Of a stretch of DNA of 64,000 nt, positions 55,525 to 60,887 are shown piece after piece. Each line of letters starts with the position of its first letter. The stretch's first letter is position 1. Under the pieces are notes generated by a model. The model was not told the origin of the DNA, made no database searches, and saw nothing but the letters and a program-made list of their open reading frames with translations. This DNA is from Armatimonadota bacterium (GTDB lineage Bacteria > Armatimonadota > HRBIN16): the NCBI GenBank assembly GCA_963677485.1, contig OY781964.1, forward strand, positions 4,128,001 through 4,192,000, read 5' to 3'. The position numbers were made by a program, and so were the translations under genes.

Positions 55525-56589
55525 ATGGTTAATGTAGGAATCATAGGCTGCGGAGGGATATCGCATTTCCACTATGAGGGTTATGAACGTGCTGGAGCAC
55601 GCATTACCCACATATGCGATTTGCGCAGGGAGGCCGCACAGCCGGTCGGCGACCGATATGGGGCGGCAGTGAGCACCGATTACCATGAGCTCATCAATGA
55701 CCCGCAAGTCGATCTCATCAGCGTCCTGACCATCGCCTCCGCACACAAGGAGATATGCCTGGCGGCCATTGCCGCTGGCAAAGGGGTAGTGTGCGAAAAA
55801 ACACTCTCCGATAATCCCGCCGATTCATCCGAAATCGCCAGAGCGGCAGATAGTGCCGGCAACTTCTTCAGCACCGCCTATATGAAACGGCATTTCTCGG
55901 CCGCCAAACAGGCGAAGTGGCTTCTAGAAGATATGGGTGAGGTCATCAGCGTTTATGTTCGTTCCTATCAGCCTTGGGATATCTGGACGACCCCATTATA
56001 TGACGGGTTGACCGATCATCCTTCTGCATATGTCCGAAACTACGGGGGCGGGATGCTGGTGATGGCTGGTAGCCATATGCTGGATCTAGTTCACTGGCTT
56101 CTTGGCCGTCCCGTGCAGGTGGTTGGTGATATGAACATCCGGGCAGGGATGGATGTGGAACGCCAGGCTAACGCCATGCTTTGGCTGCAGAACGGCGGAA
56201 TTGTGCATTTTGAGGCACTGGGGCATCCGTATACTACCGTCGGCTACGAACGAAACGGCTGGGATGAGCGGATTGAGATCAACACCGTGAAGGGCCGGCT
56301 TGAGCTGTATACTGTCACCTGGAACCACCCAGAGCGCAACGGTGCACTGCTCGTGCATCTCGATAATACCACTGGCCGGTCCATTGAGTACCGCTATCCA
56401 GCGGAAAACCCGTTTGATCTGGAGATGGCGGAGATAGTTCGCCGGTTCTCAGCCGGTGAACCAGGGGTGCCGTCTGCCTGGGATGGGTATGTGGTCGATG
56501 AGCTCATCGCCCATATCACTCAAAGTGCCCGCACTCGAACGGTGCTGCCGGTTGTTTACCGCGACCTTGCCGATACAGAGTCATCATAA
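55525..56589 (+). CDS. Gfo/Idh/MocA family oxidoreductase
   Basis: VGIIGCGGI, D..ELI.DP.VD, H, CEK, GGG.L...GSH.LD. Confidence 0.9.
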   Translation: MVNVGIIGCGGISHFHYEGYERAGARITHICDLRREAAQPVGDRYGAAVSTDYHELINDPQVDLISVLTIASAHKEICLAAIAAGKGVVCEKTLSDNPADSSEIARAADSAGNFFSTAYMKRHFSAAKQAKWLLEDMGEVISVYVRSYQPWDIWTTPLYDGLTDHPSAYVRNYGGGMLVMAGSHMLDLVHWLLGRPVQVVGDMNIRAGMDVERQANAMLWLQNGGIVHFEALGHPYTTVGYERNGWDERIEINTVKGRLELYTVTWNHPERNGALLVHLDNTTGRSIEYRYPAENPFDLEMAEIVRRFSAGEPGVPSAWDGYVVDELIAHITQSARTRTVLPVVYRDLADTESS

Positions 56590-56649
56590 GTCGACATCAT
56601 ACATTAAATCTGGAGGAAATCATCTATCATGAACCCGCAACCATTATTA

Positions 56650-58305
56650 ATATCTTACCAACCATATTTTGAACACGGTGTATAGAATATTCTGATATTA
56701 CGCACCACACAAAGCGTTAGGCACAACGATCTGGCGAATAGCAAGTGCTGCCATGATGATACGCTTGCCAAGTGCAGTGAGGTAGTATTTGTAGCGTTTA
56801 CCGCATTTTTTAACGAGCCGGAATACTCGGCATCGCTTGATGAAGTATGATATCTGAGAGCTGGACATCTGCGGTAAGGCTTTTTGAAGCATACGGTTTG
56901 TGATCCCGCTGATGCATCCCTCTCCGCGAGCAAGTGCAATGAGACATTCCAAATCCTTCTTGAGGAAAAGGTTGAATCCTCGATACGAGCGATGATCACG
57001 GGTGGTCGAGGTCGCGATTTTGATGATCTGATGTTCACCATCGCTGTTGTCATCAAGGGCGGAAAGAAAGTCAAGATATCTGTTGTTTGCAGATAATAAC
57101 AGTTCCCTCAATGGAGGAAGGCTGTAGATGGTCTTTTGCATAGGGGCGTATTTAATCTCAGTCGTCCCATCATGATGTTCTACCTCACGGTAGTGTTTAA
57201 ATTCAGAGACGTCATTCACAGTCGTCTCGATACGCAAGATTATCCCTTGCTTGTCATACATTTTGATAGAAGCCCATCCCATGTAGTGTTTGATGCGCGT
57301 GCCTTGTATGCGGCGATCGAACTTGTAGTCAGTGCCGATCTCAGCGAGTGTTCGCCCATCAAGTTTCTTACCAAGAAACATCGCGATAGACTCTGGCGTT
57401 ACCGTATGTATCGCTGTTTTGACTAGATTATCGTAGATGGCTTTGAGGTCTTCGGCGCGTTTGAACACGATGTCTGTAGCATATTCCACCTGCATTAGCG
57501 ACCAATGATATGAATTGTCAGCAAGCCGTATCACGGGGCAATACATTCTGGCAAATGCATCCAGCGCATGGTGCAGCTTATCAGCAGGAAAAGCGTCTGC
57601 CAGCCTCTGAGCACAGCTAAAGTCGTCGATTTTTACAAAGGCGTTGTCCAGTGGAGTGAAAACTACTCCCTCGGATTGAAGGCAATGCGCGAGATAATTG
57701 TGTCCATTACAATAGAATTGCAGACGGAAGGGCACCCAGGTCGGAACTCGTAGATAGCACAGTCCAAACTCTGCATCGATGAAATAGAAGTAGTAATGAA
57801 GACACTTGGTCTCCTTGATATTCAGCCGGGTTTTGTGGGTAATCTTGTCGTGCCACGGGGTGTATGCAGGACATTTTTCCAACACTGAGAATATGTGGAC
57901 GAGACCGGGGTGACACCCTCGACTACTAATGATCTCTTTGATGCGGTCTTCTTTTCGAAATGAAGAGGCACGGCGTATATACTCAATTTCAATGCTGTTG
58001 GTAACGGCAAGGCGTTCCGCATTGGCTTTGATCTCATCTCGTAGAGGTTCGGCAAATTCCTTAGGAAAGTCAAATAGCCTGATGTTGCGTTGATGAAGAT
58101 AGATGCCCATTCCGTCGCTATGACACCAGCCTGGGATTGTACCGGTGATAACTATGCGGTCGAAGCATGAATATACCCCAGCTATCTGCTTTGCATAGCG
58201 TTCTTGAAGTGATGTCATTCTGGGCAACCTCACGAAAGGGTGTTTGAATGTATATTACGTGGCGAATGCAATCATTCCTTTTTTGGTTGCGGCTAAGCCG
58301 CCTTA
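56650..58305 (-). mobile_element. Insertion element without terminal IRs; TTA at both junctions; terminal GCGGC-TAA-GCCGC hairpin
   Basis: Precisely interrupts the SDR reading frame; visibly more AT-rich than its flanks; one large ORF. Confidence 0.85.
56698..58233 (-). CDS. Putative transposase/Rep-like protein of the insertion, with C-terminal winged HTH
   Basis: 511 aa filling the element; SCFDRI...G, CLHYYFYF.D.EFG, QVEYATDIVF, IKMYDK.G..LRIETT; C-terminal helix plus LVKK.GKRYKYYLT.LG wing. Confidence 0.75.
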   Translation of the reverse strand: MRLPRMTSLQERYAKQIAGVYSCFDRIVITGTIPGWCHSDGMGIYLHQRNIRLFDFPKEFAEPLRDEIKANAERLAVTNSIEIEYIRRASSFRKEDRIKEIISSRGCHPGLVHIFSVLEKCPAYTPWHDKITHKTRLNIKETKCLHYYFYFIDAEFGLCYLRVPTWVPFRLQFYCNGHNYLAHCLQSEGVVFTPLDNAFVKIDDFSCAQRLADAFPADKLHHALDAFARMYCPVIRLADNSYHWSLMQVEYATDIVFKRAEDLKAIYDNLVKTAIHTVTPESIAMFLGKKLDGRTLAEIGTDYKFDRRIQGTRIKHYMGWASIKMYDKQGIILRIETTVNDVSEFKHYREVEHHDGTTEIKYAPMQKTIYSLPPLRELLLSANNRYLDFLSALDDNSDGEHQIIKIATSTTRDHRSYRGFNLFLKKDLECLIALARGEGCISGITNRMLQKALPQMSSSQISYFIKRCRVFRLVKKCGKRYKYYLTALGKRIIMAALAIRQIVVPNALCGA

Positions 58306-59051
58306 GGTAAAACGGCGGTCGTCACCGGGTCAGCCCGGGGTATCGGCTACGGCATCGCGCTCAGGCTAGCCAAGGAAGGGGCGAACGTGGTCATCGCGGA
58401 CATTAATGCGGACCATGCGGCCGAATCGGCCCGCCAAATCGCTACCGAGACAGGCCGAAAGGCAATCGCCATCGCTTGCGATGTGACCGATCAGCAATCT
58501 GTGGTCACCATGATCACCAAAGCTGTGTCCGAACTGGGCAGCCTGGACATCATGGTCGCGAATGCGGGCGTCTGCCCGTTTGTGGAAATCATGGAGATGG
58601 ATGTCGAAACTTGGAAGAAGACGATTTACATCAACCTGACTGGCGCGTTCATCACCGCTCAGGCTGGCGCGAAGCAGATGGTGGCCCAGGGCAAAGGCGG
58701 TCGAATCATCTTCATCTCTTCGCTGGCTACCATAAGGGCTTCCAGTGCTCAGGCGGACTATGCGGCGTCGAAGTCGGGTGTGAAGATGCTGATGGCTACA
58801 ATGGCAACAGCGTTAGGCAAACAGGGCATCACCGTCAACGCCATCGCACCGGGTGTCATCTATACCGAAATGGGCGCGTTCCACTGGGATGTACCGGAAC
58901 ACAGGGCGGCCTTCGCGATAGAAAACCCGATCCCGCGGCTTGGGATGCCTTCGGACATCGCGAATGCGGCGGTGTTCCTGGCTCTGGACGAATCGGAATA
59001 CATCACCGGCAGCACCATCCGCGTGGACGGCGGCAGGGAGGCGATAGGGTA

Positions 59052-60095
59052 ATGAGAGCGAACCGTTCAGCATATGTGAAGTCACCGTGGCAATTTGAGC
59101 TGCGTGAGATGCCTGTGGGAAGTCCTGGCGTGGGCCAGATAGTGGTGCAGATCAAGGCCTGCGGTATCTGCGGCACCGATCTGCATACCGCAGACCGTAC
59201 CGCGTTGGACTGGCAAGCGTTCGGGCACGAGATGGCCGGTGTGGTGGTCGAAGTGGGCGAGGGCGTGAGCCGCTTTACGCTTGGCGACCGTGTGGCTCTC
59301 AACACAGCCGCTCCGTGCGGGAAGTGTCCGATCTGTCTACCCCAGCCCTACGGTAAAGGAAAACCGGAGCTTTGCCGAACACCCGTCTCGTATTGGGGCG
59401 GTCCGCAGATGGGTTTCGGCGAATATATCATCGCACCACATGAGAGTGCCGTTCTGATTCCCGATTCAATGCCATTCGACGTCGCCAGCATGGTGGAGCC
59501 GATGGGGGTCTCCATTGACATCGTGGAGACCGCGGATGTAGGCTGCGGCGACAATGTGCTGATCATTGGGGCCGGTCCGCTGGGGCTTGGTGCTATCACC
59601 GTGGCTAAGAACGCCGGAGCCCACTACATTGCCGTGGCCGCCAGATCGACATACACTGCTCGGGTCGAAGCCGCCCGCGCACTGGGAGCCGATGAGATCA
59701 TCGAGATCGACAAAACCCCGATCACTCAGGTGGATTTCGGGCCAAATCAGCCTGATAAGATCCTGGTCACCTCTCCGCCGCAGAGCATCTTGGATGCCAT
59801 CGCCATCGCCCCGTTTGGTGCGACCATTGCCTATATCGGGATTGCCTCAGGCCCGGGAGCCGTCATCTCATTTGATGCGGATGACTTCCACTACAGACGT
59901 CTCAGCCTCAAAGCGTCGTTCGCCTCGCCGGATATCCAATCGGCCAAGAGCTTGCGTATTTTGCAGGCTTACCCTGAGCTGGGACGTGAGCTGATATCGC
60001 ACCGCTTCAAGTTGGATGAGCTGGAGGCGATGATGAACCTGGCCCACACCGACAGGGGGCGGACGGTTAAGAAGATGGTGATGGTGAACGAATAG
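59052..60095 (+). CDS. Zn-dependent alcohol/sugar dehydrogenase (MDR family)
   Basis: CGICGTD, GHE, CGKCPIC...C, GAGPLG; TAATG coupling with the SDR stop; the ORF-track N-terminal extension is spurious. Confidence 0.9.
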   Translation: MRANRSAYVKSPWQFELREMPVGSPGVGQIVVQIKACGICGTDLHTADRTALDWQAFGHEMAGVVVEVGEGVSRFTLGDRVALNTAAPCGKCPICLPQPYGKGKPELCRTPVSYWGGPQMGFGEYIIAPHESAVLIPDSMPFDVASMVEPMGVSIDIVETADVGCGDNVLIIGAGPLGLGAITVAKNAGAHYIAVAARSTYTARVEAARALGADEIIEIDKTPITQVDFGPNQPDKILVTSPPQSILDAIAIAPFGATIAYIGIASGPGAVISFDADDFHYRRLSLKASFASPDIQSAKSLRILQAYPELGRELISHRFKLDELEAMMNLAHTDRGRTVKKMVMVNE

Positions 60096-60103
60096 GGCGC
60101 TTT

Positions 60104-60839
60104 GTGGCCTGCGATATACGCCGTCAGTCCCGTGTCGACGGGTTCCATCGCCCCAGGGGGCTCCATCACCCGTCGCTGATTAGGTGGCTGCCCGCGTCGC
60201 TTCGCTCCTGCGGGCGCTGGCGGAGGGTTCCCTGCGCCCGCTTGCGGGCTGAGACTGGGTAGACGCGCGGTGAGGGAACCCCGTTTTGGGACGCCAGTCC
60301 CGTGGGGTGACTAAACCCGCGGCAGCGTGGCTGGTAGCCTGCGATACACGCCGCCGGCATTTGTCGACGGGTTCCATCGCCCCAGGGGGCTTCATCACCC
60401 GTCGCTGATCAGATGGCTGCCTGCGTCGCTTCGCTCCAGCGGGCGCTGGCGGATGGCAAGTTGCGCCCGCTTGCGGGCTGCGAATGCCTAGACGCGCGGT
60501 GAGGGAACCCCGTTAGGGACGCCAGTCCCGTGGGGGTGACTAAACCCGCGGCAGCATGGCTGGTAGCCTGCGATCTACGCCGCCGGCATTTGTCGACGGG
60601 TTCCATCGCCCCAGGGGGGCTCCATCACCCGTCGCTGATCAGATGGCTGCCCGCGTCGCTTCGCTCCAGCGGGCGCAGGCGGATGGCCACCTGCGCCCGC
60701 TTGCGGGCTGAGACTGGGTAGACGCGCGGTGAGGGAACCCCGTTAGGGACGCCAGTCCCGTGGGGTGACTAAACCCGCGGTAGCGTGGCTGGTGGCCTTC
60801 GATCTACGCCGCCGGCCCCGTGTCGACGGATTCCATCGC
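60104..60839. repeat. Tandem array of a ~229-bp GC-rich structured unit (3 full copies plus a partial)
   Basis: TGTCGACGG.TTCCATCG anchors at 60133, 60362, 60591 and 60821 (periods 229, 229, 230). Confidence 0.92.
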
Positions 60840-60887
60840 TCATTCCGTTGTGTTAGGTGACTACATACAGTTACTGCCATACAGCAG

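Follow-up and report, generated by a model that had tools for sequence, protein, structure and literature searches.

Which enzyme moves a small DNA segment that has one gene and no terminal inverted repeats is the question raised by positions 56650..58305 of the stretch analysed here, a window of 64,000 nucleotides from an Armatimonadota bacterium (assembly GCA_963677485.1, contig OY781964.1, positions 4,128,001 to 4,192,000). The segment splits a gene of the short-chain dehydrogenase/reductase (SDR) type, and an earlier interpretation of the window made from its letters (the sequence-only reading) had seen in it a transposon with a Rep_trans-like tyrosine nickase, outside the standard insertion sequence (IS) families. 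That proposal is supported here by fold matches, by the order of the motifs and by the lack of a match to a known family in the profile searches described below. The segment is certainly a mobile, multicopy element carrying one gene. It probably represents a new IS family in which a metal-dependent tyrosine nickase of the non-HUH, Rep_trans-like kind acts as transposase, a reading in which catalysis, the strand that is cut and the geometry of the active site are inferred.

Copies, target and ends of the element

The genome, a single contig of 5.22 Mb, contains 22 copies of a 1656-bp element, one of which is the segment in the window. Identity is 100% for 21 of the 22 copies, and the remaining copy has 12 substitutions and a 1-nt deletion. 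Alignment of the copies with their flanks revealed that the copy-versus-copy identity begins at 56650 and ends at 58305/58307, in agreement with the boundaries drawn by the sequence-only reading. On the window + strand every copy has the layout flank-(T/A)TA, G TATCTTACC ... GCCGCC TTA, then GG-flank, or in a longer form flank-(T/A)TA, GTATCTTACC ... GGTTGCGGCTAAGCCGCC TTA, GG-flank (22 copies), with 1653 nt between the junction points in all 21 copies measured. On the right all 22 copies have TTAGG, and the left trinucleotide is TTA in 18 and ATA in four. In the assembled-contig runs the repeat contig spans 56651..58307 and has a k-mer depth of 187.6 against 10-12 in the flanks in one run, and 263.8 against 7-9 in the other; a depth of 16-32 times the flanks in two runs, together with the 22 genomic copies, indicates that the repeat is not due to chance.

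Several peculiarities of individual copies were observed. Base 56650 is A in the window copy and G in all other copies, the rest of the window copy matching 20 others; this A may have arisen by point mutation where cleavage occurs, or may be left over from the joining reaction. Several substitutions of the diverged copy (G000:C1:824514-826173), namely 56810 T>C, 57696-57697 AA>GG, and 57868 A>T, are also present in a variant from metagenome contigs (runs X6 and X8), so that the element has two sublineages. Two same-orientation copies located ~3 kb apart (G000:C1:3219947-3221618 and 3224644-3226306) are both oriented opposite to the majority of their replichore, and could form a composite unit or belong to an inserted island. 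Among the isolate-labelled runs, the element-to-flank ratio of k-mer depth is ~17x in X1 and ~32x in X3, a gap that may be due to unequal copy numbers or to extra-chromosomal copies in one of the two.

The element protein is found in none of the two same-genus and none of the 17 same-family genomes searched, and a single match, of 24% identity, was obtained among the 40 genomes of relatives. The absence from these close genomes, combined with 22 copies here, indicates a recent arrival followed by multiplication.

The sequence-only reading had also described the termini as lacking inverted repeats, and indeed, of 59 inverted pairs, the 25 longest include none that links both termini. Two candidate repeats were rejected: a subterminal 6-nt CAACCA near both ends of the window copy is missing from the family consensus, and a 9-nt inverted match (56635-56643 / 58284-58292) pairs host sequence with an element end, with about five such matches expected by chance according to our estimate. 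No target duplication is seen at the copies examined. The element has the general properties of an insertion sequence: copies that are almost the same occur at unrelated places and share precise ends, there is one gene, and the gene disrupted here has an empty site elsewhere.

The SDR gene provides this empty site. Removal of 56650..58305 yields ATG AAC CCG CAA CCA TTA TTA GGT AAA ACG, reading MNPQPLLGKTAVVTGSARGIG, behind GGAGG, and thus the in-frame N-terminus MNPQPLL with a good ribosome-binding site, as had been anticipated, is restored; the element splits the gene after codon 7. One genome of the same genus, G001, has an uninterrupted allele MNPQPLLNKTAVVTG, which keeps an intact N-terminus and is 89% identical downstream. 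Hence the empty allele sought in relatives exists, and the intact allele, together with the restored reading, assigns the GG on the right to the host sequence. The element, its target-derived bases and the two parts of the SDR gene are positioned as follows.

56650..58305, no strand assigned: mobile element of 1656 bp, with the right TTA counted as element and the left (T/A)TA as target
56647..56649, + strand: target-derived trinucleotide, TTA here (18/22 copies TTA, 4/22 ATA, with a constant interior)
58306..58307, + strand: target-derived GG, needed by the SDR Gly codon and present in 22/22 copies
56629..56649, + strand: first seven codons of the SDR gene (MNPQPLL), behind GGAGG, from the sequence and the G001 allele
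58306..59052, + strand: rest of the SDR gene (GKTAVVTGSARGIG...), start codon lost, the G001 homologue being 89% identical

The target of all 22 copies is 5'-(T/A)TA^GG-3'. The alignment of 21 sites gives R-W-T-A^G-G-D, and the 22nd reads ATA...TTAGG. By our own arithmetic, use per site is ~6.6 times higher for TTAGG (3684 sites, 18 insertions) than for ATAGG (5434 sites, four insertions). When empty sites of three ATA-flanked copies (L016, L019, and L020) were sought in G001 and G002, the matches ended hundreds of bases away from the insertion points.

The junctions of relatives, read on the gene strand, allowed us to assign each base either to the element or to the target. For the hairpin end there are 69 distinct junctions; CC comes before 65 of them and the terminus of another element before three, and one is a spurious match. 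At the other end TAA follows 38 of 40 distinct junctions, TAG and TAC following one each. The pattern of the 22 copies thus recurs in related elements of other genomes. Seven lineages have CAA in place of TAA at the hairpin end, and in the four of these with the other junction read (L084, L085, L088, and L104) the target-side trinucleotide remains TAA or TAC; thus the hairpin-side trinucleotide belongs to the element and the other-side one to the target. The insertion is between CC and TAN on the gene strand, nothing is duplicated, and the coordinates of the element remain those of the sequence-only reading. Along the window + strand both junctions have the sequence TTA^G, which corresponds to C^TAA in the gene's own direction, as would be expected if one nicking specificity cuts both ends and the target. 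At the junctions of element-to-element tandems the GG/CC is missing.

The two ends, which comprise 48 nt and 87 nt of non-coding DNA, carry the following features.

58289..58301, no strand assigned: end hairpin GCGGC-TAA-GCCGC, one base before the terminal TTA and four bases from the junction
58277..58288, - strand: box beside the hairpin, read on the gene strand as AACCAAAAAAGG and in the consensus of the family as AACCAAACAGG; proposed site of the winged helix-turn-helix (wHTH) domain
56650..56659, - strand: other terminus, on the gene strand GGTAAGATAT in the window copy and GGTAAGATAC in the remaining 21 (consensus GTAAGnGAC)

In relatives with 50-60% protein identity the gene-proximal end reads CC^(T/C)AA-N-[CCGGC-NNA-GCCGG]-AACCAAACAGG and the distal end ...GTAAGnGAC^TAA. 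These relatives come from records of at least 12 phyla, as named in the record titles. The hairpin at the terminal TTA, noticed already in the window copy, proved to be conserved and covarying across phyla. In 46 distinct family ends it is paired in 93.9% of cells, two of the five pairs demonstrate double compensatory changes (C-G to G-C or U-A; six cells), and this covariation was reached by none of 500 shuffles; the fifth pair is unpaired in 14 sequences. In the same 46 ends from many phyla the box columns 26-32 are invariant or nearly so, and we infer that the wHTH domain binds the AACCAAACAGG box.

Examination of tandem arrangements sheds light on the requirements in cis. At L056 the terminus of a diverged relative adjoins the element via a single TAA, without CC. 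At L112 two full copies stand head to tail with a 239-nt element between them, which has both ends and no open reading frame (ORF); each of the joints is a TAA. The genome of L112 contains three full copies and one partial copy of this miniature at separate sites, one of them solitary between CC and TAC, and ~38 further occurrences of the 28-nt end motif. The TAA-joined tandems show that the junction of a resident element can act as a target, and the mobility of a 239-nt miniature having only both ends shows that the two ends suffice in cis. At L100:2304-2351, ~350 nt past the terminus of the first element, a different hairpin end (CC-TAA-GCCGGCAGAGCCGG-AACCAAAGAGG) was observed, so that two family members are neighbours there. 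Inspection by eye of possible pairing between the termini across a circle junction gave no consistent complementarity, and this candidate was dropped. There is no sigma-70-like promoter site between the hairpin end and the start codon, and no Rfam family matches at E <= 1.

Family, predicted fold and motifs of the encoded protein

The element has a single ORF and no other ORF family. The rows below list this ORF, its two predicted domains and four candidate catalytic residues.

56698..58218, - strand: sole ORF, 506 amino acids from ATG (MTSLQERYAKQ...), stop included; homologues have 503-510 amino acids and an equivalent Met
57049..58218, - strand: residues 1-390, double module resembling the TATA-binding protein (TBP), putative nickase domain, from models and fold searches
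56701..57048, - strand: residues 391-506, MarR/HxlR/ArsR-like wHTH, from fold matches with Z 8-10.2 and matches to hidden Markov models (HMMs)
57256..57258, - strand: codon of Y321 (K319-M-Y321-D-K323), candidate catalytic Tyr, found in 69/69 sequences and in the 19-23% identical relatives
58159..58161, - strand: codon of D20 (FDR, first beta-strand), candidate metal ligand, invariant; on D46/D9 of the Rep structures if strand 1 is ungapped
57484..57486, - strand: codon of E245 (Q-V-E-Y-A-T-D), candidate metal ligand at the position of motif I, invariant
57226..57228, - strand: codon of E331 (L-R329-I-E331), candidate metal ligand at the position of motif IV, invariant

An upstream in-frame GTG at 58233 would give a product of 511 amino acids. 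Homologues of this protein are numerous: 7998 of 8000 scored candidates have E <= 1e-3, most of them on contigs of 1.6-2.4 kb, and clustering of the family at 50% identity gives at least 6552 groups with E <= 1e-3, or 658 with E <= 1e-30. In the source records they are named only 'hypothetical protein' or 'MarR/ArsR family transcriptional regulator'. Family members match the HVO_A0261_N, HTH_45, and MarR HMMs. The most distant relatives considered, with 19-23% identity, are plasmid proteins of Burkholderia and Mycobacterium; those of the Mycobacterium riyadhense plasmid (L137) and the Burkholderia sp. YI23 plasmid (L138) are annotated as hypothetical and have two to four occurrences per record.

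The protein was compared with Pfam, NCBIfam, PHROG, and PDB sequences. NCBIfam includes the IS-family models of NCBI. No Pfam family was matched at E <= 1, the best NCBIfam and PHROG matches (E 0.11 and 0.19) are at chance level, and the same applies to the matches to PDB sequences (all with E >= 0.93) and to the profile search. The statement of the sequence-only reading that the protein has no motif of a known transposase holds in these terms, as no transposase domain was found in Pfam or NCBIfam at E <= 1.

AlphaFold2 models of the full-length protein (69 sequences; pLDDT 94.3, pTM 0.85) and of residues 1-390 (37 sequences; pLDDT 91.1, pTM 0.89) were compared with known structures. Residues 391-506 match the winged helices of MarR, HxlR, and ArsR proteins with Z 8-10.2, and so the wHTH expected to follow the N-terminal domain is indeed seen in the model. 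In the fold search with residues 1-390, 22 of 48,161 chains have Z >= 5, and the seven best are whole-domain matches. TBP and Rep_trans structures are the only kinds of whole-domain match: five TBP chains with Z 8.8 (181/189 residues, root-mean-square deviation (rmsd) 3.9), 7.9, 7.4, 7.2, and 7.1, RepDE (4cwc_A) with Z 7.1 (179 residues aligned, rmsd 5.6), and RepSTK1 (4cij_A) with Z 6.9 (194 aligned, rmsd 5.1). The Foldseek comparison with Rep_trans that had been suggested likewise returned RepSTK1 4cij_A as the best PDB match (E 1.6e-3, prob 0.94), and in BFVD it found TBPs of giant viruses (E 8e-5) and, from Inoviridae, proteins such as A0A345MNV4 (E 4.6e-4, prob 0.99).

Multiple alignment of 69 sequences revealed D20, R21, E245, K319, Y321, R329, and E331 among the invariant columns, with K323 nearly invariant. 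Moreover, D20, R21, Q243, E245, K319, Y321, K323, R329, and E331 are identical in five sequences that include the 19-23% identical relatives. The stretch K319-M-Y321-D-K323 falls on the predicted strand 316-323. Both in order and in i/i+2 spacing these residues agree with motifs N' (D), I (RxD), III (YxK), and IV (RxE) of Rep_trans. In the alignment ranges model residue 13 corresponds to residue 39 of RepDE and model residue 12 to residue 1 of RepSTK1, which places D20 on D46 of RepDE and on D9 of RepSTK1 if the first strand is ungapped; the equivalence of D20 to a Rep_trans catalytic residue is thus drawn from alignment ranges, and that of E245, Y321, and E331 from motif order only. The sequence-only reading was correct in that QVEYATD, IKMYDK, and LRIE hold invariant residues in the Rep_trans order, whereas similarity to Rep_trans at the sequence level was not found. 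A prediction of the homodimer (residues 1-495, two copies) scored 0.01 and is evidence neither way, and in a mean-field direct coupling analysis of strand pairing with 240 full-length homologues the top couplings are gap artefacts.

These data bear on two other explanations of the element. It might be a member, diverged beyond the reach of profiles, of a described IS family (DDE, DEDD/IS110, HUH IS200/IS605 or IS91, serine or tyrosine recombinase), and the absence of inverted repeats and of duplication and the short target are indeed also known in IS200/IS605, IS91, and IS110. We regard this as very improbable in view of the searches at E <= 1 in Pfam and NCBIfam (ISfinder being outside the search), of the TBP-like model, which has no RNase H, RRM/HUH, or recombinase chain among the matches listed, and of the failure to match any RNA family.

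Alternatively, the protein could be a DNA-binding factor only, with a TBP-like saddle and a wHTH that mark the ends while a host enzyme cuts and joins. In the fold search TBP scores at least as high as the Rep proteins, the databases label the protein as a MarR/ArsR regulator, and catalysis is deduced from the pattern of residues. Nevertheless, a Lys-flanked invariant Tyr, an Arg-x-Glu, and two more acidic residues are kept down to 19% identity, a pattern which fits an active site better than a DNA-binding saddle; multicopy spread in at least 12 phyla argues for self-sufficiency; and the ends differ from each other, whereas the symmetric substrates of host recombinases are usually alike. A purely DNA-binding role is therefore considered improbable.

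Proposed mechanism and relation to known systems

For a mobile one-gene element whose product has no known transposase fold, a nickase acting as the transposase is the most economical reading. We consider it likely that the element is an autonomous insertion sequence whose protein combines a TBP-fold nickase (residues 1-390) with a MarR-like winged helix (residues 391-506). According to the proposed mechanism, the winged helix would bind the AACCAAACAGG box and the nickase domain would read the adjoining GC hairpin at the gene-proximal end. One strand would be cut at both junctions, whose sequence is 5'-TTA^G-3' in the window + strand and C^TAA in the gene strand, Y321 forming a 5'-phosphotyrosine link and D20, E245, and E331 holding the metal. 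The freed strand may then be joined into a circle or displaced by rolling-circle synthesis, and would be transferred into the target 5'-(T/A)TA^GG-3' without duplication.

The Rep_trans family (PF02486) includes RepC/RepD of pT181/pC221, RepSTK1, CTXphi RstA, and the MOBT relaxases ICEBs1 NicK and Tn916 Orf20. Its members nick a hairpin origin through a 5'-phosphotyrosyl intermediate; the catalytic Tyr sits on a beta-strand between basic residues (R-x-Y-x-K), and the three acidic metal ligands (D46, D142, and E214 in RepDE) are on separate, neighbouring strands. The accessible text of PMC4797284 describes a TBP-like sheet of two pseudo-symmetric modules and an active site formed by D46 of strand 1, R140/D142/A144/D146 of strand 6, R189/Y191/K193, and R212/E214, and that of the review PMC5714925 gives the motifs N' (D), I (RxD), III (YxK), and IV (W/LxRxE). 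The element protein resembles this family in the predicted fold, which on the models is a 10-stranded sheet of two pseudo-symmetric TBP-like modules (cf. PMC4797284), in the order of N-terminal Asp, x-Asp/Glu-x-Ala-x-Asp, basic-x-Tyr-x-Lys, and Arg-x-Glu, and in having a DNA hairpin next to the proposed site of action and an appended DNA-binding domain. It differs in lacking detectable sequence similarity, in a domain larger by ~150 residues that carries long insertions of hairpin and helical type, in a tight turn instead of a helix between the Tyr and the Arg-x-Glu, and in the MarR-like type of its DNA-binding domain. Finally, Rep_trans proteins belong to plasmids, phages, and integrative and conjugative elements, whereas the protein studied here sits in a multicopy insertion sequence.

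A parallel in architecture is provided by the archaeal Rep-Arvir proteins (DUF7845). RepSNJ2 of the betapleolipovirus SNJ2, an initiator examined by mutagenesis, has E25, D207, Y283 (in K-H-Y), and E303, which are followed by a MarR-like wHTH, and the combination of a nuclease with this wHTH is given in the accessible part of PMC13107129 as the defining feature of Rep-Arvir and as absent from bacterial Rep_trans. The models of the element protein reproduce this succession of a TBP-fold domain and a MarR-like wHTH. A Rep-Arvir query likewise matches TBPs and Inoviridae Rep, with A0A345MNV4 named as a Rep_trans protein (PMC13107129), and both proteins have the same BFVD fold matches (A0A2N9QVX7 and A0A345MNV4). 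The K-x-Y context is also shared with RepSNJ2, and so is the spacing of 76 residues between the acid and the Tyr (D207-Y283 and E245-Y321; PMC13107129). On the other hand, the element family is bacterial, occurs in an IS and not in a virus or plasmid replicon, is not found by the PF25227 HMM, and lacks the additional C-terminal alpha/beta domain described in that source (PMC13107129).

Among transposons, the most similar behaviour is found in two HUH groups. IS200/IS605 elements such as IS608 and ISDra2, whose HUH Y1 transposase TnpA has an RRM-like fold and a His-hydrophobic-His motif, have no inverted repeats, no duplication, a short target, asymmetric hairpin ends, and miniature derivatives. 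Our element likewise has no inverted repeats, makes no duplication, inserts beside a short fixed sequence, has miniatures and asymmetric ends with a hairpin, and shows resemblance between the cleavage sites of the element ends and the target. Whereas that group has subterminal hairpins at both ends, a hairpin was found here at one end only, and our element further differs in a TBP-like and not an HUH/RRM fold, a protein three times larger with a wHTH, and a strand bias, typical of that group, that is not significant (15/22); there is no HUH Y1 match in Pfam or NCBIfam. IS91/ISCR are rolling-circle transposons with an HUH Y2 transposase. They share with the element asymmetric ends, a short specific target, and the absence of duplication, and the head-to-tail arrays are compatible with a rolling-circle mode; however, the element protein has neither the HUH motif nor the HUH fold, and there is no evidence of read-through capture of flanks, all 21 measured copies having 1653 nt. 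The element is also distinct from IS110/IS1111, which have a DEDD transposase and a guide RNA encoded in a long non-coding region, since it has no DEDD Pfam match, ends of only 48 and 87 nt, no Rfam match, and the same short target motif across diverged members.

Several observations weigh against an IS-borne nickase of this type. The fold evidence has modest scores: Z values of 7-9 are common for models without a clear match, the Foldseek TM-scores are low (0.22-0.31), and TBP, which is not an enzyme, scores slightly above the Rep proteins. Two extra strands (341-347 and 353-359) follow the RxE strand, the second of them missing in distant relatives; if 341-347 lies between the strands of RxE and E245, the Rep_trans-like geometry would fail. 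The distance from Y321 to E331 is 10 residues versus 23 in RepDE and 20 in RepSNJ2. Sequence comparison gives no link: the Rep_trans (PF02486) HMM with its curated cut-off of 29.6 bits has no match in the protein or in the whole genome, although the B. subtilis control and true members elsewhere were found; Rep_trans is not in the best 25 of 55 Pfam families matched by 69 members at E <= 10; hhalign of 37 family sequences against five Rep_trans sequences yields Prob 0.64% (Neff 2.4 and 2.8); and the DUF7845 (PF25227) HMM finds nothing in the protein and nothing in the genome at E <= 10, while its Haloferax control was detected. The reading accounts for recognition of the hairpin end only. The orientation bias with respect to replication is weak, the window + strand being the lagging-strand template in 15 of 22 copies (two-sided binomial p ~0.13; origin near 2.15 Mb and terminus near 4.75 Mb from cumulative skew), and in two other multicopy genomes the local flank skew was too noisy for such an estimate. 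Lastly, the contigs were searched for the circular junction as had been advised, and neither this joint nor an excision product was seen in four assembled-contig sets; 13 short contigs have no terminal overlap, and the end-to-end junction scan of related loci returned only element-to-element tandems.

The missing circles are relevant also to a third explanation, by which the unit is a minimal rolling-circle replicon (plasmid or satellite) and its copies in the chromosome arose secondarily, when Rep transferred strands into sites similar to the nick site. Every TBP-fold nickase characterised in the accessible text of PMC4797284, PMC5714925, and PMC13107129 is a replication initiator or relaxase. 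A unit of 1.65 kb with one Rep-like gene and one hairpin also has the layout of a small rolling-circle plasmid, and the k-mer depth of run X3 is ~32 times the flanks against 22 genomic copies (~17 times in X1). Yet no contig links both ends of one element (four sets; 13 short contigs), every copy examined has host flanks and is located in a chromosome or a large plasmid, a scan of viral contigs with six peptide patterns yielded no relative, and the lagging-strand origin that such a replicon normally needs is not evident in the 48-nt and 87-nt ends. We consider this explanation unlikely, if slightly less so than a purely DNA-binding protein; it overlaps mechanistically with rolling-circle transposition, and the distinction is partly a question of naming.

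To our knowledge, the recognised classes of transposases are DDE, DEDD, HUH, serine, tyrosine-recombinase, and Cas1. In the full-text literature we found no IS or transposon with a Rep_trans or TBP-fold enzyme, a search whose scope lay outside subscription journals, supplements (that of PMC13107129 may list bacterial relatives), and ISfinder. Neither the superfamily of the enzyme nor the IS lifestyle is new in itself, but their combination appears to be. On the whole we incline, with some reserve, to the broader view that TBP-fold (Rep_trans-like) tyrosine nickases constitute a further, unlisted chemical class of prokaryotic transposase, and that the family is the bacterial, IS-borne counterpart of archaeal Rep-Arvir.

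If the nickase reading is true, one more class of transposase would be added, and a second, non-HUH superfamily of rolling-circle nickases would also have given rise to transposons, in parallel with the HUH Rep proteins alongside IS200/IS605, IS91, and Helitrons. Thousands of genes labelled as MarR/ArsR regulators or hypothetical would be genes of mobile elements, and relabelling would affect annotation, assembly (the homologues being mostly on 1.6-2.4-kb repeat contigs), and estimates of IS load in environmental bacteria. A compact system of one protein, end sequences of ~50-90 nt, and a target fixed at 5 nt would also be a candidate tool for DNA insertion.

The interrupted SDR gene and its neighbourhood

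The local effect of the recent expansion to 22 copies is the inactivation of at least one SDR gene. The disrupted gene has lost its start codon, and an in-frame TAA is located at 58294 within the element end; the next in-frame start is GTG at 58387, downstream of the glycine-rich motif.

The gene content of the locus differs between this genome and G001. In G001 (locus L033) the SDR gene directly follows the homologue of an 869-aa protein, whereas here a 354-aa oxidoreductase-like gene (window 55525-56589) sits between the gene of the 869-aa protein and the SDR gene. Further downstream, the intergenic positions 60093-60847 of the window hold a unit of ~229 nt repeated in tandem three to four times, with 82-97% likeness between the repeats; imperfect palindromes of 21-28 nt occur in each, and spurious ORFs cross them. 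In addition, a family of 60-130-nt repeats, 75-98% alike, was observed at L020:3377-3790 and at 88 places in G001; these repeats are probably REP- or MITE-like and unrelated to the element.

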